The notes: generated by a model not told the origin, from the sequence alone. A stretch of 64,000 bases of DNA from an uncultured Chloroflexia bacterium (GCA_963705905.1 OY970123.1:275051-339050), one strand, 5' to 3'; positions 19,267 to 29,314 are shown, counted from the stretch's first letter. Numbers and translations: made by a program.

Positions 19267-20571
19267 ATGAAAGAAGATGAGTTATTAAGTCAACCGATCG
19301 CTCTGCCCGATGGGATTGACTACGATGAGTACATAATAGGTACTTATACAGTCACATACCCGGCTATCTTCCCCATGCCCAAGCTGGCGCCTCTACTTGC
19401 AGTTGAGCAGAGTACTGGAACATGGGTCGCCGTACCCGGCGAGACACCCGAAGTAAGGCGGAATCATATCGCCAAGGTAATAGGTGTTTATGAGTTGCCT
19501 GACTATGAGTTCTCCGTGCCCGGCGGCTTGCAGGAAAGGAACTGGATGATACAGATCGCCTTCCCTGAAGTCAATATAGGATCCCAGATTCCCATGATGC
19601 TGACTGCCGTTGTGGGCAACATCTCCATGGCGGGACAGATAAAACTGGTAGACATAAGATTTCCTAAGAAATATGTGGATGGCTTTAAGGGTCCAAAGTT
19701 CGGTATCGAAGGCATAAGGAAGCTGCTGGGCGTGAAAAAGAGGCCTTTACTGAACAACATGGTCAAACCCTGCACCGGTTATCCCCTGGAAGTGGGTGCA
19801 GAGTTGTTTAAGCTGGCGGCCCTGGGGGGTTGCGACATAGTTAAAGACGATGAACTGATCGCTGATGCATCTTTCAATTCGGTGAAAGGCCGGGTTAAGC
19901 GCTATATGGAGATAGAGAAGCAAGTCTTTGAGGAGACGGGAGAGCATACGCTTTATACCGTAAATATATCCGACTCGGTGCCCAAAATATTTAAGAACGC
20001 CAAGCGGGCAGTAGAGTTGGGTGTAAACGGCATAATGATAAATTACATTGCTGTGGGGCTGCCTGTTTTGCAGGCACTTGCAGAAGATCCCGAGATCAAT
20101 GTACCGATCCTTGCGCATATGGACGTAGCCGGTGCTCTTTATATGTCACCATTCCATGGTATGAGTTCTCACCTCGTTCTCGGCAAATTGCCCAGACTGG
20201 CCGGTGCAGATATAGTCGTTATACCCGCACCCTATGGCAAAGCTCCTGTCATCACGGAGAAATTCGATGCCATGGCCAGAAATCTCACTTATCCGTTTTA
20301 TAACATCAAACCCACCTGGCCAATGGCATCAGGTGGGATAACCCCTTCAATGGTGCCGAAGGTCATGCAGGAGCTGGGCAACGATATCGTCATCGGTTCC
20401 GGCGGCGGAATCCACGCCCATCCCGGTGGACCCGTAGCCGGCGGCAAGGCTTTCAGACAATCTATCGAGGCGACAATGAAGGGCATATCGCTTGAAGAGT
20501 ATGCCAAGACTCACAAGGAGTTGGCCGCTTCAATCCGGGCATGGACTGACCCCTTTAAGAAAGGCGTATAA
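19267..20571 (+). CDS. RuBisCO-like protein (form IV)
   Basis: EQSTGTW, GPKFGIEG, KPCTG, GGCDIVKDDE (carbamylation motif), SGG and GGGIHAHP. Lacks the form I-III KPKLG Lys and HRA motif. Confidence 0.92.
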   Translation: MKEDELLSQPIALPDGIDYDEYIIGTYTVTYPAIFPMPKLAPLLAVEQSTGTWVAVPGETPEVRRNHIAKVIGVYELPDYEFSVPGGLQERNWMIQIAFPEVNIGSQIPMMLTAVVGNISMAGQIKLVDIRFPKKYVDGFKGPKFGIEGIRKLLGVKKRPLLNNMVKPCTGYPLEVGAELFKLAALGGCDIVKDDELIADASFNSVKGRVKRYMEIEKQVFEETGEHTLYTVNISDSVPKIFKNAKRAVELGVNGIMINYIAVGLPVLQALAEDPEINVPILAHMDVAGALYMSPFHGMSSHLVLGKLPRLAGADIVVIPAPYGKAPVITEKFDAMARNLTYPFYNIKPTWPMASGGITPSMVPKVMQELGNDIVIGSGGGIHAHPGGPVAGGKAFRQSIEATMKGISLEEYAKTHKELAASIRAWTDPFKKGV

Positions 20572-22124: not shown

Positions 22125-22730
22125 TCATTTGTCCGTAACTTGAGCCTGCTTCAATTCCTTCAATAAGAAGGCAAATATAAGGATACCAAGAGTGTCCGCC
22201 AGGATCATAGGTACGGCAATTATACTGACGAGCTTTAATGCATCCGCGAAAGGGCGGGCGAGAAGAAGCAGCAGGCCCATATCGGCAGCTTCCATAAGGA
22301 AGGCGAAAAGTGCCGGTTTCCAGATACCGATATTGCCCTTCCAGAGCAGGAAAAGAAGGCCGCCGGCCAGGCCGCTGACTGTGGTGCCGATTGCGCAGGG
22401 TACCGCGGTAAAACCACCCATGAAATAGCGGTGCACACCACCGAGCAATCCCGCTCCAAGCCCTACCCATGGGCCTCCCAGCAGGCCGGCAATCATGGGA
22501 CCCAGGTTTCTGATATTGGCAATGGCCCCCGACGTTTGGATGCCCGTATAAGTCCCGTAAACGGCAAAAAGGCCGAATATAACCGCCAGTATCACCTGAT
22601 CGAGGATGCTAAGTTTTTTTGCCAGCATACGATTGAAAAACTCGATGTGGAAAAGCAAAAAGAATACCACCAGCAGGAGACTGGCCCTTTCAATGAGGGT
22701 CCACAAGATGCCGAAAACGGATAAGTCCAT
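22125..22730 (-). CDS. Stand-alone LytS/YhcK-type 5TM receptor domain protein
   Basis: IFGLFAVYGTYTG...AIANIRN...AGLLGGPWVGLGAGLLGGVHRYFMGGFT..PC signature; no kinase domain follows. Confidence 0.85.
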   Translation of the reverse strand: MDLSVFGILWTLIERASLLLVVFFLLFHIEFFNRMLAKKLSILDQVILAVIFGLFAVYGTYTGIQTSGAIANIRNLGPMIAGLLGGPWVGLGAGLLGGVHRYFMGGFTAVPCAIGTTVSGLAGGLLFLLWKGNIGIWKPALFAFLMEAADMGLLLLLARPFADALKLVSIIAVPMILADTLGILIFAFLLKELKQAQVTDK

Positions 22731-23299
22731 GATTACTCCTTTCCCTTGGCGGGCATTATAAAAGACCTGTGTTAATTTTTAACGGCACATATTCTACACC
22801 CTCGTCGGCGGAGCTTTCCATGGCCTGACCATTTACATAAGATTAAAAGTTGGCGGAAGGCGATTTACAAAACTGCGCAAAAACTCTAAATAGCCGATGA
22901 TGTTTTGTTGACTTGAGGCAAGTCCTGAGGTTTAACCGCCTGCCCGGCTAAAACGGTATCAAGATTTAATTGAGACTAAACTTGCCTATTTATTAAAGTA
23001 AATCAACTATACGAATTAATTTGCTACGCATTTTAGGGTACGCTTTGGGTTGCACATTTCTGTAAAAAAATCACGCTCAAAACCGATGTATTGAACATCG
23101 GCGTATGGTTTACTTTAATCAAGGTGAGATAAACCTAGATGCAGAAATTCCTGCTTGCGCAGTAAAGATATCAAAAAGCTGAATCATTCAAAATGACTGT
23201 GCCGGGTCCCGGCCGGTTGCCTGGCGGAGGTGGGGCTCCCGCACCTGGTATTGATCATTCTAGCGCGTCGAAACCTTGAATATTTAAATCAGGAGTACT

Positions 23300-23713
23300 T
23301 TGATGAAAGCGTCACATGCTGCCGTATTCTACGCGATCTTTTTTGTCGTGATCCTGGTTGTGACAGGTGGGTTTGTATTTAAAAGAACCACGCAGGATGT
23401 CTCACCGTTATGGCTAACTCCCCAGGAAGCCAAGAACCTGATCGACAAGACATCCGACGTGGTTGTAATAGATCTGTCACGCCATTTCTTCAATGACGGA
23501 CATCTTCCCGGCGCACTTAACTATCCGCGCTGCGCTCTACCCTATGTGATCTCAAATCTCGATAAAAATAAGACATATATTGTCTACTGCCATTGGACCG
23601 GGGCTCCGCTTGCCAGTGCTTACGATTTGAAAGAAGCCGGATTTAACAATGTCTATGCACTGGAAGGTAATTATGGCGCCTGGGTAGACGCCGGTTACCC
23701 GGTCGTGAATTAA
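23300..23713 (+). CDS. Rhodanese-like domain protein with an N-terminal TM anchor
   Basis: VVVID...GHLPGALN...IVYCH...LKEAGFNNVYALEGNYGAW. Confidence 0.85.
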   Translation: MMKASHAAVFYAIFFVVILVVTGGFVFKRTTQDVSPLWLTPQEAKNLIDKTSDVVVIDLSRHFFNDGHLPGALNYPRCALPYVISNLDKNKTYIVYCHWTGAPLASAYDLKEAGFNNVYALEGNYGAWVDAGYPVVN

Positions 23714-23714
23714 T

Positions 23715-24089
23715 CTATTTAATGAATTTCCCTCCTAGTGTAAAAGGCGTTGCGTATCCGGCACGCGGGATCGATGCCTTAGGAGAATGAGAAGTGTCAG
23801 AATATTCATACGGTTTTGAGACCAGGGTATCCGAATATGGCTTATCAGCCTCTTTGGCGGTCTCCGAAGCGCTTTGCTTGGAGTGGCCGAGCATGATCAA
23901 TAGTCCCGTAACATATAGGCCCAGGAAAGTACCAAGGAACGGAAATATGAACTTCAAGAAATGGATATTTGCAGCGGCGTCGATCTGGTATCCGATCCAG
24001 AAAGCACCGCCCATGCAACCCGGCATGATGATGAACAGCGACAGCGGGAATTTAATGAGGAATTCCCACAAACTGGTATTAACGCCCAT
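23715..24089 (-). CDS. Small membrane protein, AtpZ/AtpI-like
   Basis: Start re-called to ATG 24089 (MGVNTSLWEF); pattern GGAFWIGYQID...FPFLGTFLGL resembles AtpZ/AtpI. Confidence 0.5.
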   Translation of the reverse strand: MGVNTSLWEFLIKFPLSLFIIMPGCMGGAFWIGYQIDAAANIHFLKFIFPFLGTFLGLYVTGLLIMLGHSKQSASETAKEADKPYSDTLVSKPYEYSDTSHSPKASIPRAGYATPFTLGGKFIK

Positions 24090-24097
24090 TACCCTTT

Positions 24098-24211
24098 TTA
24101 ACATGTTCCCAGCACCCAGGTCAGCATTGAGAAGGCCACTATGATAGCTGTAAGAATCCCAACGGCAATAAAAGTGGACACTAATCCGATAGTCCAACCT
24201 TCAGTTTCCAT
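24098..24211 (-). CDS. Unannotated 37-aa single-TM peptide (METEGWTIGLVSTFIAVGILTAIIVAFSMLTWVLGTC)
   Basis: Strong RBS AGGAGG a few nt upstream of ATG 24211; clean hydrophobic helix; stops 8 nt before the next ATG. Confidence 0.6.
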   Translation of the reverse strand: METEGWTIGLVSTFIAVGILTAIIVAFSMLTWVLGTC

Positions 24212-24414
24212 GAATAACCTCCTATCTATTATTTCCGCGGTTCCCGGGCCTACCGTCTTCAATCGCCGGTCCGGGGCCGCCGGATTGCTTAGCCTTTATG
24301 CCAGGATGATGTACACAATAAGGTTTGAATACAATACTATAATCAATTCCTGTAACTATATTATGTTAAAGCGCTTGGTAAACCTTCTTCCAAGACAACT
24401 TGCCGTTGACAGTT

Positions 24415-24627
24415 CTACGATCTGGCGGGAATTCGATCCTGTAAATATTTCAGGCAAATATCCGGGTAGTTGGTGGCGAGGCCCTGCAGAAACCGTCGCC
24501 CCGGCTTTTTATCACCGGTTAAGACCAGACACAGCATCGATGGGGATATGCCCAACTTGGCTGCCAACTTGGCATTGGTCAGCTTCTCCTGTCGCATTAT
24601 ATTGTAAAGCTCGGACTCCAATTTCAT
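24415..24627 (-). CDS. Small XRE/Cro-like HTH regulator (70 aa)
   Basis: MRQEKLTNAKLAAKLGISPSMLCLVLTGDKKPG HTH_XRE pattern; start re-called to ATG 24627. Confidence 0.8.
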   Translation of the reverse strand: MKLESELYNIMRQEKLTNAKLAAKLGISPSMLCLVLTGDKKPGRRFLQGLATNYPDICLKYLQDRIPARS

Positions 24628-24628
24628 G

Positions 24629-24715
24629 TTTACTATATTAAATAAAAAGTTTACTAAAATCAATATCCAAATGGGTAATTTTGACATGATTTTTAAAAAG
24701 ATTTACCATGGTAAA
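24629..24715. promoter_or_regulatory. Divergent promoter region with three related operator-like sites
   Basis: Perfect palindrome TTTACCATGGTAAA (24702-24715); related TTTACTATATTAAA (24629-24642) and TTTACTAAAATCAA (24650-24663); TTGACA-17-TACCAT on + (24681-24709); TTGATT-17-TAATAT on -. Confidence 0.6.
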
Positions 24716-24746
24716 GCGACAGCTTGCCAATAGGCGGTATAAATAG

Positions 24747-25328
24747 ATGTTAAGAGATTTTGTTAAGGATACGCGGTTCAAAAGGGGCTTGTCTCAAGCA
24801 GAGCTGGCCAAGTTGGCCGACCTGTCGCCTTCTTTTATTTGCCGTATTGAAAAAGGTGATTACAAGTCGGTTACCCTGAGTTCCCTGCAAAAACTCTCAC
24901 GCGCCCTGAAGGTTAGCATAAGCGACCTCAGCAACCTCGTTTTAGATAAGAATCCGAAGGAAGATTTGCTAAAGAAAACGCCATATGAGATAATAAGTGA
25001 GCTTTCGCTTTCTTTACCGGCGATCGTGCCGGTTTATGCGGAAATAAATAGCAGGCAGATAATTGAATACGTTTTCGTTCCACGGGAGTTGGCAGCATAT
25101 GGGGGCAAGGAGATGAAGCTGATAGGGATTAAGGCTGCGGAGGTGGAGTACGGCAATGTGGTTCACAAGGGAGACGTAATAATTTGTGGTAAGGACGTGC
25201 CGGCCTCACCAGGTGACCTTTGCCTGAAGATGGAAGGTGAGGAAATGGTCATTGCTCCCTATAAAAAGAAAGACGACTATTTTGCGGTCATACTCCAGGT
25301 CGTCAGAGTCGTTAAAAAGCTCAACTGA
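24747..25328 (+). CDS. XRE-family cI/LexA-like repressor with a degenerate S24 C-terminal domain
   Basis: RGLSQAELAKLADLSPSFICRIEKG HTH; C-terminal IVPVYAEI...EYVFVP...KGDVIIC...PGDLC resembles the S24 fold. Confidence 0.8.
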   Translation: MLRDFVKDTRFKRGLSQAELAKLADLSPSFICRIEKGDYKSVTLSSLQKLSRALKVSISDLSNLVLDKNPKEDLLKKTPYEIISELSLSLPAIVPVYAEINSRQIIEYVFVPRELAAYGGKEMKLIGIKAAEVEYGNVVHKGDVIICGKDVPASPGDLCLKMEGEEMVIAPYKKKDDYFAVILQVVRVVKKLN

Positions 25329-25395
25329 ACCTCAATTAAACCTCCACCCTACTAAGCCGGTGGTAACTCTTATATTCCTTTGTCGCCAGGTAAGT

Positions 25396-26013
25396 CTAAT
25401 GTAAATCCATTACAGACTCTATTGACGCTGGAAGCTGTCTTTGAATCGTAATACTGGAACCTATCGCAGGTTTCACCTGCACTGTAAAATAGGTATTTAC
25501 TGTCAAATTGTCCGACATTGTGTTTCCGGTACCGAGATCGGTAAGGTCTATGGTTATCTCCTTCTGCTCACCGGTTTCCAGCAAGTTATTACCATTTGTA
25601 TACCCCAGGTCTTGAACGGACCATTTCACATTATTGATATAAGTCTGTGCGGTGGTCAGGCTGATGACACATTTATTCTGTGCGCTGGAGGTGCCATCGC
25701 ACGGAGTCATGTCAATAGGATTCCCGGCAATTGCGTTCTTAACTGTAAAAATGATTTTATCCACCGTTGCATTATCGGCGCTGCAGGCCACCACGGAACC
25801 CGATAGCTCCAGGTTACTCTTAGCCTCATTAAGGCCTGCATAAATGGTCTCCTTTCCCTTTTCAGCGGAAAATAGCCCGGCGCTCAGAATCGCGTAGCTG
25901 AAAACAGCGGCCACAGTAACAAATGCGATCAAAATAATCGCAGTCTCCAGCCCGGTCATACCTCTCTGACTACGGTGCATATTAGCTATGGCACTGATCA
26001 ATTTACTAAACAT
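25396..26013 (-). CDS. Archaellin (archaeal-type flagellin, ArlB/FlaB family)
   Basis: Class III signal QRG|MTGLETAIILIAFVTVAAVFSYAILSAGLFS; NLLETGE; C-terminal QVKPAIGS.ITIQRQLP...VMDLH. Confidence 0.9.
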   Translation of the reverse strand: MFSKLISAIANMHRSQRGMTGLETAIILIAFVTVAAVFSYAILSAGLFSAEKGKETIYAGLNEAKSNLELSGSVVACSADNATVDKIIFTVKNAIAGNPIDMTPCDGTSSAQNKCVISLTTAQTYINNVKWSVQDLGYTNGNNLLETGEQKEITIDLTDLGTGNTMSDNLTVNTYFTVQVKPAIGSSITIQRQLPASIESVMDLH

Positions 26014-26189
26014 ATATTTCACCTTCCGAGGTTTTCTAAATTATAGCTATAGGCTAAGGGCAATACAGTAGCCGAAGGTTTAATATAGGTGAGCCAAACG
26101 TCTCTATTTGACTCGATAAACGAAGAAATATGAAATAGATTGGAGTCGAGTGAGCGAACGGTTAAAAAGTAAAACTGTGCCTGAAAATT

Positions 26190-26266
26190 CAATAACGGTT
26201 GCTTCCTAATCACCGAGCCTCACCGAGAGAAGCTCGATGACGGGTCGATTGAAGCAACCGTTATTG
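26190..26266. repeat. Long stem-loop between the two archaellin genes
   Basis: 16-bp perfect inverted repeat CAATAACGGTTGCTTC (26190-26205) / GAAGCAACCGTTATTG (26251-26266), with internal pairings AATC/GATT and CGAGC/GCTCG. Confidence 0.75.
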
Positions 26267-26279
26267 CCGCAGGGAAAAT

Positions 26280-26903
26280 TTAATGCAGATCCATCACGGC
26301 AACAATAGCCGGAGGTAGCTGCCTCTGAATGGTAAGGCTGGACCCTACTGATGGTTTAACCTGAATGTTAAACTGGTCATTGGATGTCAGGTTTTCAGAC
26401 ATGACCTGCGAATAGCCGAGATCGTTGAGGTTGATGGTGATTTCGAACTGCAGGCCGGGGTCCAACAGGTTACTGGTATTGTCAGTGCCGAGAGCGACTT
26501 TGGACCATTTTACAGTATTGAAGTAGTCATATTTGGTCGTCAGGCTCATGACGGTTTTGTTTTGAGAACTAGTTGTGCCGTCGCACTCGGTCATGTCGAC
26601 AGGGTTGTCCGACATGGTGGCATTCCGCAAAGTGAATTTTATTGTCGTGAGAGATTGGCTAACATTATCTCCCAAACCTATTACAGACCCCGATAGCTCC
26701 ATTGCGCTCTTGGCTTCCGTGATACCGGCATAAATCGTTTCCTTAGCCCTTTCGGAAGAAAACAGGCCTGCGCTGAGGACGGCATAGCCAAAAACCGCGG
26801 CCACAGTTACAAAGGCAATGAGGATAATGGCGGTTTCCAACCCCGTCATGCCCTTTTCCCCCTTGTGCATGTTGGATAGAGTTTCTATAAACTTGTTAAA
26901 CAT
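26280..26903 (-). CDS. Archaellin (archaeal-type flagellin), second paralog
   Basis: EKG|MTGLETAIILIAFVTVAAVFGYAVLSAGLFS; colinear with 25396-26013; start re-called to ATG 26903 after GGAGGG. Confidence 0.9.
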   Translation of the reverse strand: MFNKFIETLSNMHKGEKGMTGLETAIILIAFVTVAAVFGYAVLSAGLFSSERAKETIYAGITEAKSAMELSGSVIGLGDNVSQSLTTIKFTLRNATMSDNPVDMTECDGTTSSQNKTVMSLTTKYDYFNTVKWSKVALGTDNTSNLLDPGLQFEITINLNDLGYSQVMSENLTSNDQFNIQVKPSVGSSLTIQRQLPPAIVAVMDLH

Positions 26904-26976
26904 TTTCCCTCCGTTTGCGTGTCCGGTCCCAAATGAAAATACCATAGCTTGTCCAATCGACTGCCTTCAATTATAT

Positions 26977-27148
26977 CTGTGCACACTCAATAATCAATGA
27001 CCTATCCGTACTGATCGGCCCCGTACTTTAGTCCCTGTGCACACTCTAGAGCGTCTATTTCTACGCATTTCGGCTTAGTGCAAGAGGGTATATATGCGCT
27101 TTTGTGCACATGCATATTAGGTCTCATAACGGATGGCGCTGTGCATCA
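26977..27148. promoter_or_regulatory. Repeated palindromic TGTGCACA boxes
   Basis: TGTGCACA at 26978, 27036 and 27103 (first two within identical CTGTGCACACTC) and variant TGTGCATC at 27140. Confidence 0.6.
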
Positions 27149-27207
27149 TGCATGTTAAATTAAGGCATACGAACAAAAAGGGAAAATCAATAAAGGAGGA
27201 AAAGACA

Positions 27208-27546
27208 ATGGCGGCAATAAAGATTGAAAACAGAAAGGTAAATGGGGTTGAGGAAGAGGCGAGGTTAAACTTCTGGGCAGGCAAGCAGACATGCTGGGGT
27301 ACATGCCATTGTCCCGACATGATAAAAGCCGAGTGCCCCGCTACCAAATACCAGTTCCTGCCCTGCTGGGAGATTGAAGGGACTTACTGCAAATTGGATG
27401 ACAGGGGAGCGACGGGCAGGGATACGAGCATTTGCGAAGTGTGCCAGGTATACAAGAAATATGGGGATGGGAAACCGATAGCGTTGAAGCTGTTCGGCCG
27501 CGGCCTGGACACCGCGCTGAAAGACCTGGAAAAAGTGACGCAGTAA
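27208..27546 (+). CDS. Small Cys-rich 'two-CW'-type putative metal-binding protein
   Basis: TCWGTCHC...ECPA...PCWEIEGTYC...ICEVCQVY (8 Cys, two CW dipeptides); ATG 27208 after AGGAGG. Confidence 0.7.
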   Translation: MAAIKIENRKVNGVEEEARLNFWAGKQTCWGTCHCPDMIKAECPATKYQFLPCWEIEGTYCKLDDRGATGRDTSICEVCQVYKKYGDGKPIALKLFGRGLDTALKDLEKVTQ

Positions 27547-27577
27547 CATTTAATAACGAAGAAAGTACTCACTGAAT

Positions 27578-27612
27578 AAAAAGGGCTGGAGTGACGCACC
27601 AGCCCTTTTTTT
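27578..27612 (+). terminator. Intrinsic terminator
   Basis: AAAAAGGGCTGG...CCAGCCCTTTTTTT. Confidence 0.8.
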
Positions 27613-27691
27613 ATGCGTTTGAGACCGAAAGCCTAAATGCGCCCCACGCTAAACGTTTTAGAATCCATCCCCTGTGAGATAGAATGAATAT

Positions 27692-29314
27692 ATGCGGTCT
27701 TTAAGGTCCATCAAGATTATCACTCTCATACTGGTTGCGGGTGTTGTGCTGAGCTGCTCGCCAAGGATTGCATCATCAAGTCAGTCTCCGGTCATGTCGT
27801 TCGATCCCAGGGGCTTGATAACAGTCGGCGATCCCGCTATACAAGCACGTTTAAAGGTGATTCTATCCGATAATACAGATATCAGGACGGATTTCAGGCG
27901 CATACAGGACTGGGTAGCTTCTTATGTGGTCTATGATCCTAATACTTCGACATACTGGCAATCGCCATCTGAGACCATTTATAAGAAAACAGGAGATTGC
28001 AAGGACTATTCCACTTTGCTATGTTCCCTCTGGCGCGCCGACGGCGTGCCCGCCTCTGACGTCTATGTAGCTATCGGGCAGAGCCGTGACAGCAAGCTTC
28101 ATGCATTCTTGATCGAGAGGTATTTGAATGGCAAGTGGCAGGTGATCGAGCCGCAGGTGGGCGGCTTTATAACCTCTGATTTGGGTGCTATAGATACTGC
28201 AGAGAAATATGCCATAACCTTTTTATTTAATGACGTGGAATATGTTAGTGACACAGTCTCGATTAATCAGATAATCCGGAGCTCAAGCACGGTTGCAGCA
28301 TCCCCGCCGGCTCAAGCTAAAAAGCCTCTGCCGGTTGTAAAATCCTTTACCGCCGATCCTCCCAGAATTTATTTAGGGAAATACACTACTTTGAGTTGGG
28401 TGGTCGATGGCGCTAACTACGTGGGGATAGATCAGGGCGTCGGGCACGTCGATCCCGTTGGCACTTCGGTTGTTTCGCCCAGGGATTCAACCCTTTATAA
28501 GCTGGTCGCGTCCAATTCCGGAGGTTCAATCACTGAAAATTTGACTGTCACGGTAATAGATTTGGATACAATGCAAAATTCACAACCCGCTCTGGTCATG
28601 CAGCAGGACGTGCAGCCGCCATTTTCTATCGGCTTCGACGGATGGTACCGCGAGGATGCGCCTGCCAGCACTGTAGATGTAGGACAACAGGTCAGTGCCA
28701 TAATCAATCTTAAAGGAGGGAGCCCGGGCCAATGCGTAGTGCGGATTTGGCGCTCAATAGAAACAGGCCATGATGAGGTAGCAGCGCAGTGGGGATTTAA
28801 ATATGATGGCGTCGAAGGCTCCGGGCAAATTTCTTTTGCGCCGTCTTATGCGATTGGTGAATCAGGCACACAAGGATACTACTTGGACTTGATGAAGGAT
28901 GGGGCGCAGGTATGGACAATGCCGGATGGCTACCCGCCACGTTTGACGGTAGCACCCAGGCCCGGATATGGAGAGCTTTCAGTGGGCTTTGCCGGCTGGC
29001 GCACGGGAGCCGATAATGTCTATACTGCAAAAAAAGGAGAGCCGGTAGCTACTGCAATCACCCTGAGCGGAGGAGACAGCGGACAATATACACTCAATGT
29101 AAGAAGGGACACGACAGGGCTAATGGACGATGCTATCCAACAGCTTACCTTTTATTATGACGGCAGCAGCGCCGTCCAGGGGCTAATGTTTATACCTCCC
29201 TACGCTACGGGGGAATCCAGCACCCGCGGGTATTACCTGGACCTTTATAAAGAAGGTAAGTTCATTTGGAGCCTCGGCGGCCCTTACCCGCCGAGATTAG
29301 CTGTCACGAAGTAA
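27692..29314 (+). CDS. Lipoprotein with a transglutaminase-like cysteine protease domain, an Ig-like module and two tandem C-terminal repeats
   Basis: Lipobox VLSC; YWQSPSET...GDCKDYS...HAFL...WQVIEPQ; two ~113-aa repeats each ending GYYLDL.K.G..W...YPPRL.V. Confidence 0.8.
   Translation: MRSLRSIKIITLILVAGVVLSCSPRIASSSQSPVMSFDPRGLITVGDPAIQARLKVILSDNTDIRTDFRRIQDWVASYVVYDPNTSTYWQSPSETIYKKTGDCKDYSTLLCSLWRADGVPASDVYVAIGQSRDSKLHAFLIERYLNGKWQVIEPQVGGFITSDLGAIDTAEKYAITFLFNDVEYVSDTVSINQIIRSSSTVAASPPAQAKKPLPVVKSFTADPPRIYLGKYTTLSWVVDGANYVGIDQGVGHVDPVGTSVVSPRDSTLYKLVASNSGGSITENLTVTVIDLDTMQNSQPALVMQQDVQPPFSIGFDGWYREDAPASTVDVGQQVSAIINLKGGSPGQCVVRIWRSIETGHDEVAAQWGFKYDGVEGSGQISFAPSYAIGESGTQGYYLDLMKDGAQVWTMPDGYPPRLTVAPRPGYGELSVGFAGWRTGADNVYTAKKGEPVATAITLSGGDSGQYTLNVRRDTTGLMDDAIQQLTFYYDGSSAVQGLMFIPPYATGESSTRGYYLDLYKEGKFIWSLGGPYPPRLAVTK

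Follow-up and report, generated by a model that had tools for sequence, protein, structure and literature searches.

A cI/Cro-type switch with a catalytically dead repressor, kept outside any phage in several genera of one bacterial family

The immunity region of phage lambda consists of divergent genes for the repressor cI and for Cro, which share three operators, and its repressor combines a helix-turn-helix (HTH) domain with a LexA-fold domain through which it pairs. A gene pair of similar layout is found in the window analysed here, a 64,000-nucleotide stretch of the genome of an uncultured Chloroflexia bacterium (GCA_963705905.1, OY970123.1:275051-339050); all coordinates given below are positions in this whole window. 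The pair consists of a cro-like gene for a small HTH protein of 70 amino acids (aa) (24415..24627, - strand) and a gene for a cI-like repressor of 193 aa (24747..25328, + strand), which diverge across an intergenic spacer of 119 bp (24628..24746). An earlier account, made from the DNA alone and called the sequence-only reading here, had proposed this arrangement, and direct reading of the open reading frames (ORFs) bears it out. The explanation favoured here, with a probability of roughly 60%, is that the pair is the immunity module of a temperate phage that was captured by an ancestor of several genera of one family and kept as a host regulator.

Other described systems resemble the locus in different ways. 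The Gifsy repressors GfoR and GtgR are described as non-cleaved lambdoid repressors that are inactivated by antirepressors (PMC3121763). The PaaR2/YdaS-YdaT switch of an E. coli cryptic prophage is reported to be bistable, with one partner translated leaderless (PMC8630535). DicA/DicC of the Qin prophage is presented as a prophage-derived repressor system that controls small toxic or regulatory products (bioRxiv 10.1101/2023.04.14.536235).

The locus has the layout of a cI/Cro switch, with divergent genes and several shared operators placed over both promoters. The cI promoter, TTGACA-17-TACCAT (24681..24709, + strand), scores 10/12 in a promoter scan; its -35 element (24681-24686) is largely kept in relatives and is separated by 17 bp from the -10 element (24704-24709). 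Operator O3, the perfect palindrome TTTACCATGGTAAA (24702..24715), covers this -10 element and the start point, and lies 52 bp from O2. The other two operators lie over the opposite promoter. O1, TTTACTATATTAAA (24629..24642), has one mismatch to the palindrome and covers the cro -10 element and start point. O2, TTTACTAAAATCAATA (24650..24665), lies over the cro -35 element, 21 bp from O1, and its core copy TTTACTAAAATCAA (24650-24663) has three mismatches. The cro promoter itself reads TTGATT (-35, 24658-24663) and TAATAT (-10, 24635-24640) on the - strand, with a 17-bp spacer. The TAATAT box stops 7 nt short of the cro ATG, which is a leaderless type of design, and cro is predicted to be translated, probably, from a leaderless or near-leaderless transcript.

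The sequence-only reading had described both the palindrome over the cI -10 element, with two degenerate copies over the facing promoter, and the leaderless style of the cro start. The first was found again by a mismatch search and by alignment, the second by reading the promoter by eye. It had also stated that neither gene has an evident Shine-Dalgarno sequence, which is wrong for cI: a Shine-Dalgarno-like AGGCGGT stands 9 nt 5' of its ATG, and at the equivalent place relatives carry AAGGTGGT or AAGGAGG in an alignment of nine spacers. A longer, 90-aa reading of cro, from the ATG at 24687, runs into a stop codon in one congener (sequences inspected by eye), and cro is therefore taken to be 70 aa long.

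The three operators can be told from chance because they are conserved. The footprint alignment comprised nine orthologous spacers from five genera, between which synonymous sites are saturated. Invariant columns (54/120) are concentrated in O1, O2, O3 and the -35 element. All three operators are invariant or nearly so in the nine spacers, in contrast to the cI leader and the sequence between the operators, which vary. Five relatives that were searched carry the same palindrome, or a variant of it differing by one base, at the equivalent place. As a class, the palindrome is not remarkable by itself. The pattern TTTACN4GTAAA occurs five times in the 2.46-Mb genome, against zero to four times in five Markov simulations, and the exact 14-mer occurs once. 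A genome-wide operator scan, one of the checks proposed earlier, was run and gave no wider palindrome regulon, which is rejected since counts in the genome and the five relatives are equal or close to those of controls (palindrome against reversed pattern in the relatives: 4/4, 1/2, 8/9, 2/0 and 6/0). A near-perfect site at genome position 462722 is not retained in relatives.

The cI-like protein consists of an XRE/HTH_3 domain (residues 1-65), a linker, and a truncated domain of the LexA/S24 fold (residues 92-189). The HTH_3 match is clear (Pfam, E 5e-12); the NCBIfam model DicA matches the same region at an E-value of 0.01 only. The second domain is harder to recognise. Peptidase_S24 (PF00717) gives 12 bits, below its gathering cut-off of 23.3, and a genome-wide PF00717 search that does recover LexA does not report the protein. 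A homologue search against 1.84 billion representatives gave 782 matches at E <= 1e-3, from which 44 full-length matches were aligned with the window protein (45 sequences). Among these, 28/45 reach Peptidase_S24 at E <= 0.01, and a profile of the 45 matches LexA 3k2z (E 2.6e-12), the C-terminal domain of mycobacterial LexA, and UmuD'.

An AlphaFold (AF2) model of the repressor has a predicted local distance difference test (pLDDT) score of 92.9. Structures were compared domain by domain, full-length Foldseek matches being blurred by the orientation of the two domains. With VIA-align, residues 92-189 superpose on LexA 3k2z_B (Z 10.7, root-mean-square deviation 2.5, 95 residues aligned), on LexA 1jhc (Z 9.7) and on the lambda cI domain 2ho0 (Z 9.1). 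Because the profile matches LexA and the model superposes on LexA and the lambda repressor, the modelled C-terminal domain is assigned the LexA fold. The S24-like domain named by the sequence-only reading thus survives the comparison with cI and LexA that it had proposed as a check.

The catalytic residues of this fold are missing. When the protein is aligned with the genome's own LexA and the 44 homologues, the position of the catalytic Ser is E134 and that of the Lys is A170, and INS plus a gap stands in place of the Ala-Gly cleavage site, where LexA and 10/45 homologues have AG. In the wider family, the Ser column holds S or C in 27/45 homologues, and the Lys column holds K in 12/45 and R in 10/45. 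The window protein and 13 close members of its clade share a one-residue deletion at the G-x-S motif, where they have neither Ser nor Cys. In all of them Lys or Arg is also absent from the base position, there is no Ala-Gly, and about 20 residues near the C-terminus are missing. The genome's LexA, used as a positive control (TIGR00498, 163.5 bits), shows AAG, GNSM and LKK in one alignment where the window protein shows INS, EVEY and IAP. Out of five features that mark a self-cleaving S24 repressor, the window protein thus lacks four and retains the LexA/UmuD fold. The absence of all three elements had been suggested before and is confirmed by these alignments. Since Ser, Lys and Ala-Gly are all absent, RecA-stimulated self-cleavage would not be expected of this repressor.

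The domain may still serve for pairing. In a co-fold model, the C-terminal domain forms a homodimer through its last strand with an ipSAE of 0.50, the best of three controls reaching 0.00. Agreement between runs is 95% of contacts or more, with a partner pLDDT of at least 81. The mark used for such models is passed by 20/30 solved pairs and by 1/23 single chains, and in this case the pass may only reflect likeness, LexA dimers being solved.

The Cro-like protein is less easily placed. Its HTH_3 match is weak (Pfam, E 0.0024), its best PHROG is phrog_3642 (E 6e-7), and a word-based search returned only close relatives (77-100% identity, 29 clusters). The recognition-helix motif SPS[FM][IL]C is common to the HTH regions of cI and Cro, which are 42% identical over 26 aa. 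This would fit recognition of the same half-site by both proteins, without proving it.

Evidence for a phage origin comes from more distant relatives. The nearest non-orthologous relatives of the repressor are about 40% identical and have the same dead domain. Eight such clade members were queried for their genomic context, which was recovered for three of them, P0002, P0003 and P0008. P0002 (40% identical) lies on a 9.3-kb metagenome contig with Ant, a cro-like gene, a divergent cI, a gene for 138 aa and an integrase, followed by HNH, tail and peptidase genes. P0003, on a 40.7-kb IMG/VR contig, is accompanied by Ant, a cro-like gene whose product also matches phrog_3642, a gene for 184 aa and an integrase. 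P0008, on a 43.7-kb IMG/VR contig, is found with a cro-like gene, a gene for 75 aa and an integrase. The order cro/cI-x-integrase is therefore present in 3/3 recovered contexts, and Ant follows cro in 2/3. Each of these phage spacers also contains repeated inverted repeats and a TTGACA upstream of cI (by eye). The window Cro aligns with the cro-like proteins of two of the phage contigs over about 60 residues, at 28-32% identity (E 2e-6 and 6e-8). Because relatives of both proteins occur in phage contigs together with the layout, the whole module is judged from sequence to be homologous to a phage immunity region.

Further searches of this kind gave less. The window protein, P0004, P0005, P0006, P0009 and P0011 have no match in IMG/VR. 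In genome contigs, P0002 has a match to the HTH only, in an unrelated genome. Cultured-phage records gave 15 matches, none with query coverage of at least 80% and all below 60% identity; most of them extend little beyond the HTH.

The phage-borne relatives also bear on when the catalytic residues were lost. The sequence-only reading had described a domesticated switch whose repressor has lost its autocleavage residues, but a loss on domestication is not supported. In the alignments, the phage-borne relatives are already without them, so the loss predates the capture.

Around the switch itself there is no phage, as was stated in the sequence-only reading. No integrase or phage family is found by Pfam among 17 neighbouring ORFs, whose matches are to metabolic, membrane and archaellin families. 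A PHROG search with four ORFs near the switch also gave no match. No Bro-N domain is found in the genome, a single contig that is 97% complete; other antirepressor families were not searched for. This phage-free setting, together with deep and stable synteny, would be expected if an XRE-family pair native to the host had been picked up by phages and not the reverse. That is quite improbable: both genes, the divergent layout and the tripartite operator recur in the three phage contigs with an integrase, and the 45 sequences of the wider family shade into canonical S24 repressors (as judged from the 28 mentioned above). Moreover, among 401 genomes sampled from the class, strong orthologues of cI (E about 1e-77) are limited to this one family.

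Within this family, the module is stable. All five congeners have a cI orthologue, 90-94% identical to that of the window, and orthologues in other genera are 66-80% identical. The order rhodanese, memb129, orf37, cro, cI is kept in 5/5 congeners and in three further genomes, G018, G053 and G215; the first three of these genes are described below. In another genome, G019, the stretch expected to hold cro reads N. A genome search across 77 genomes of the family found cI in 25, cro in 24, memb129 in 26 and the rhodanese gene in 27. All four occur in the same genera (g1, g31, g14, g15, g2 and g32) and are adjacent wherever contigs allow; cI is additionally found in genus g9, at a contig end. None of the four was found in 14 genomes of g3, 5 of g33 and 4 of g13. 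The synteny check that had been proposed was thus run, and gene order is fixed across congeners and other genera, which suggests that the switch has been inherited vertically in fixed synteny.

Two observations on related genomes can be added. In G215, contig C21 (locus L025) folds back on itself, with identical inverted copies of rhodanese, memb129, cro and cI about 110 bp apart, which looks like an assembly artefact. Two genomes of the same class, G168 and G094 (single contigs of about 1.5 Mb), have distant, longer homologues of the repressor (about 217-227 aa), in three identical copies in G168 and in several in G094; the copy numbers suggest repeated mobile elements there.

Pairwise ratios of nonsynonymous to synonymous substitution rates (dN/dS) are 0.075 for cI (24/45 pairs usable; N-terminal part 0.063, C-terminal part 0.093), 0.116 for cro (23/36 pairs usable) and 0.166 for the rhodanese gene (15/21 pairs usable). 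Both regulators are under strong purifying selection and, by these values, at least as constrained as their neighbour.

A sporadic prophage remnant, one of the outcomes that the sequence-only reading had named as fatal to its proposal, is ruled out by the fixed synteny, the presence in 24-27 of 77 genomes and the purifying selection. The related explanation that the pair belongs to a prophage or island that is still mobile, or has only recently decayed, is hardly credible. It could appeal to the phage-like types of the genes and to a tRNA-Pro gene 6 kb away. Against it stand the lack of an integrase, Ant or structural gene among the 17 neighbouring ORFs, the lack of Bro-N in a single-contig genome 97% complete, the same flanks in several genera and an unremarkable GC content (0.44-0.47). 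From 'domesticated, SOS-independent bistable switch', the phrase used in the sequence-only reading, the word 'domesticated' is upheld, since the module is phage-free, vertically inherited and under purifying selection, and its closest non-orthologous relatives are phage immunity repressors; the bistable part is retained in conditional form only, and so is independence from SOS, since an indirect link may exist.

Two small genes lie downstream of cro. An alignment of nine loci shows orf37 (24098..24211, - strand), which encodes a small one-helix membrane protein. The ORF follows cro after 152 nt, and a conserved Shine-Dalgarno sequence, TAGGAGG, identifies METEGW... as its true start. Its stop overlaps the start of memb129 (ATGTTAA), a gene for another small membrane protein (23715..24104, - strand) that is lineage-restricted and always found beside cro/cI. 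Family and PHROG searches gave no match for orf37. For memb129 there is no family match either, and only close relatives are found, all named 'hypothetical'; an Atlas lead to an AtpI/AtpZ-like protein (score 0.83) is below the level that counts and was rejected. Between cro and orf37, alignment and predicted fold show a conserved GC-rich hairpin (24234..24284, - strand) just 5' of the orf37 Shine-Dalgarno sequence, in which one G-C pair is replaced by a compensatory A-T pair in two other genera (by eye). Candidate roles for the hairpin are attenuator or stabiliser. Since there is no room for a promoter after it, orf37 and memb129 would be read through the hairpin, either from the cro promoter or from an internal one. 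We infer from this arrangement that cro may be co-transcribed with orf37 and memb129.

These small genes allow for another explanation, in which the locus is a silencing remnant of the RacR/YdaS type. The repressor would then be kept only to block harmful products of the cro arm (orf37 and memb129), and the unit would be an addiction-like leftover that does not switch and has no regulatory value for the host. The layout matches, with a divergent repressor and Cro and, downstream of cro, small membrane proteins of no known family, and E. coli RacR is reported to be essential through its repression of the adjacent ydaS-ydaT (PMC5700377). Harmful genes would be expected to decay, however, yet cro has a dN/dS of 0.116, and orf37 and memb129 keep open frames, a conserved Shine-Dalgarno sequence and coupled start and stop codons across genera. 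The operator-like sites described next also suggest a use to the host. This explanation is considered unlikely, and capture of a phage immunity module followed by retention as a host regulator remains preferred.

Convergent with memb129 is a gene for a membrane-anchored protein with a rhodanese domain (23303..23713, + strand; Rhodanese E 1.7e-12). It was not found in five genomes without the switch. The 570 bp upstream of it contain two operator-like sites, whose half-sites were compared in 14 genomes of six genera. Site A, TTTACTTTAATAAA on the - strand (22989..23002), has its half-sites kept in these genomes, and site B, TTTACTTTAATCAA (23109..23122, + strand), is nearly invariant in them. 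Site B, 194 bp before the rhodanese ATG and 120 bp away from A, is identical to O2 at 12/14 positions and to A at 13/14. On both strands of the 2.46-Mb genome, the pattern TTTACTNNAATMAA has four matches, while its reversed control has none. O2, A and B account for three of these matches; the remaining one falls inside the ORF of a DNA methyltransferase and is taken as chance. The sites are suggestive of a link between the switch and the rhodanese gene, which is a probable further target. Neither the tie to cro-orf37-memb129 nor the operator-like sites upstream of rhodanese had been part of the sequence-only reading.

The rhodanese gene has some further features of its own. A GC-rich structured leader (23195-23245, + strand) lies just 5' of its ribosome site. 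An Rfam search of 22600-27700 gave no credible match and nothing at all in 22600-23500; two sub-threshold chance matches at 27.5-27.6 kb are outside the locus. In G018 (locus L019), the Cys of the active-site loop (YCHWTGAP) is replaced by Ser (YSHWTGAP), and because of this the rhodanese domain may not be catalytic in all members.

On its other side, cI has no co-transcribed partner, because the next gene, of the archaellin family, is convergent with it. This gene is the first of two paralogues of the archaeal flagellin family (PF01917, E about 7e-26 each; 25396-26022 and 26280-26945, both - strand), found here in a bacterial genome. Both have a class-III-type signal peptide (…RG or …KG followed by MTGLETAI). 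They are followed by a Cys-rich gene of 137 aa (orf137) and a transglutaminase-domain gene, and the block is present in seven related loci and absent beside cI in G053. It is very improbable that the two regulators are dedicated to these archaellin-family genes. Adjacency in seven loci (the five congeners, G018 and G019) speaks for such a role. In G053, on the other hand, the archaellin-orf137-transglutaminase-glpX block is missing beside cI while cI-cro-orf37-memb129-rhodanese is intact. Neither archaellin upstream region has a match to TTTACYATRGTAAA with up to three mismatches, and the archaellin upstream region carries a different repeat, TGTGCACA.

At 26978, 27036 and 27103, the divergent spacer that separates the second archaellin gene from orf137 carries three copies of TGTGCACA, two of which read CTGTGCACACTC; the distances between successive copies are 58 and 67 bp. 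Of eight related loci searched, seven have no such copies at the equivalent place. Between the archaellin genes lies a perfect 15-bp inverted repeat, AATAACGGTTGCTTC / GAAGCAACCGTTATT (26191-26205 and 26251-26265), which may be a terminator with a long loop. Elsewhere in the window, a gene resembling the RuBisCO large chain (19267-20571, + strand) directly follows the gene of an FGGY sugar kinase and precedes that of a pyridine-nucleotide disulphide oxidoreductase, an arrangement that is kept in relatives.

The favoured explanation, capture of a phage module and its retention by the host, can be set out as a mechanism. The repressor, operators and Cro of a phage lineage would have entered the chromosome of a multi-genus ancestor and been kept there. 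The 193-aa protein would bind DNA by its HTH and pair by its catalytically dead, shortened LexA-fold domain, and would act jointly with the 70-aa Cro-like protein on three operators of the TTTAC type. Occupation of O1 and O2 would turn off the leaderless cro promoter and, probably, orf37 and memb129 too. Occupation of O3, the perfect palindrome, would turn off the repressor's own promoter. Through the two O2-type sites upstream of it, the membrane rhodanese gene would probably be controlled in the same manner. The assignment of proteins to sites is something we infer, and control of the rhodanese gene and any bistability are to be understood in the same conditional way.

Several points weigh against this explanation. 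The roles given to the sites are predicted from sequence, and AT-rich promoter regions are able to mimic motifs of the operator type. The cro promoter reaches only 8/12, is absent from the promoter-scan list and was read by eye. That the module passed from phage to host is read from genomic context and not from a rooted tree, and contexts were recovered for only 3/8 of the clade members queried. That the four genes occur in the same genera may simply reflect a single subclade whose members share many genes and, being kin, are not independent. The hairpin between cro and orf37 means that read-through is not assured. Finally, TTTACTNNAATMAA was chosen after O2 and B had been seen, so that only site A and the genome-wide rarity of the pattern are independent.

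A more speculative and rather unlikely extension can be drawn as well. The switch, captured before several genera diverged, might have had its O2-type operator copied to a neighbouring promoter, and might now turn the rhodanese gene and the two small membrane proteins on and off heritably in a subpopulation of cells. The dead domain would then receive a signal other than SOS, with a host protein or small molecule in the place of the lost antirepressor.

Repressor/Cro pairs that have survived the loss of their phage are known from single species, in which they remain within decaying prophages. In the window, what is left is the two-gene switch by itself, every base of its operators intact, and strong selection has maintained it across several genera of an uncultured lineage. 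Sites at a host-type gene seem to have been added to it. If this is borne out, the locus would offer a clean example of host regulation derived from a viral decision circuit. Its non-cleavable repressor would also make it a compact natural toggle in which to study triggering without SOS.

As in lambda, the cro promoter is covered by two operators and the repressor promoter by one, and the repressor is an HTH joined to a LexA-fold domain. Unlike the lambda repressor, the window protein is without Ser, Lys and Ala-Gly, and its domain is about 20 residues shorter. The spacing of 52 bp between O2 and O3 also differs, so that a protein bound to O2 would not abut the cI -35 element, and it is cro, not cI, that looks leaderless. 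Finally, the window pair is not surrounded by a phage and does not lie inside a phage or prophage, whereas its relatives in the phage contigs do.

Like Gifsy GfoR and GtgR as described in PMC3121763, the window repressor is not built for self-cleavage. The likeness to GfoR is one of functional description. The parallel extends to the phage-borne relatives, which carry Ant (Bro-N) right after cro in 2/3 contigs; in these contigs Ant lies within the immunity region, while the Gifsy antirepressor is described as lying elsewhere, under LexA (PMC3121763). No Bro-N/Ant was found in the genome of the window, unlike the arrangement that this source describes for Gifsy. DicA/DicC, likened here by description, lies inside a prophage remnant (bioRxiv 10.1101/2023.04.14.536235), unlike the window pair.

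The RacR/YdaS-YdaT (PMC5700377) and PaaR2/YdaS-YdaT (PMC8630535) switches are similar in that an immunity repressor and Cro outlive the working phage. Both still lie inside recognisable defective prophages of single species. In the window, only the two regulators are left; they are conserved in at least six genera, with extra operator-like sites at a host-type gene.

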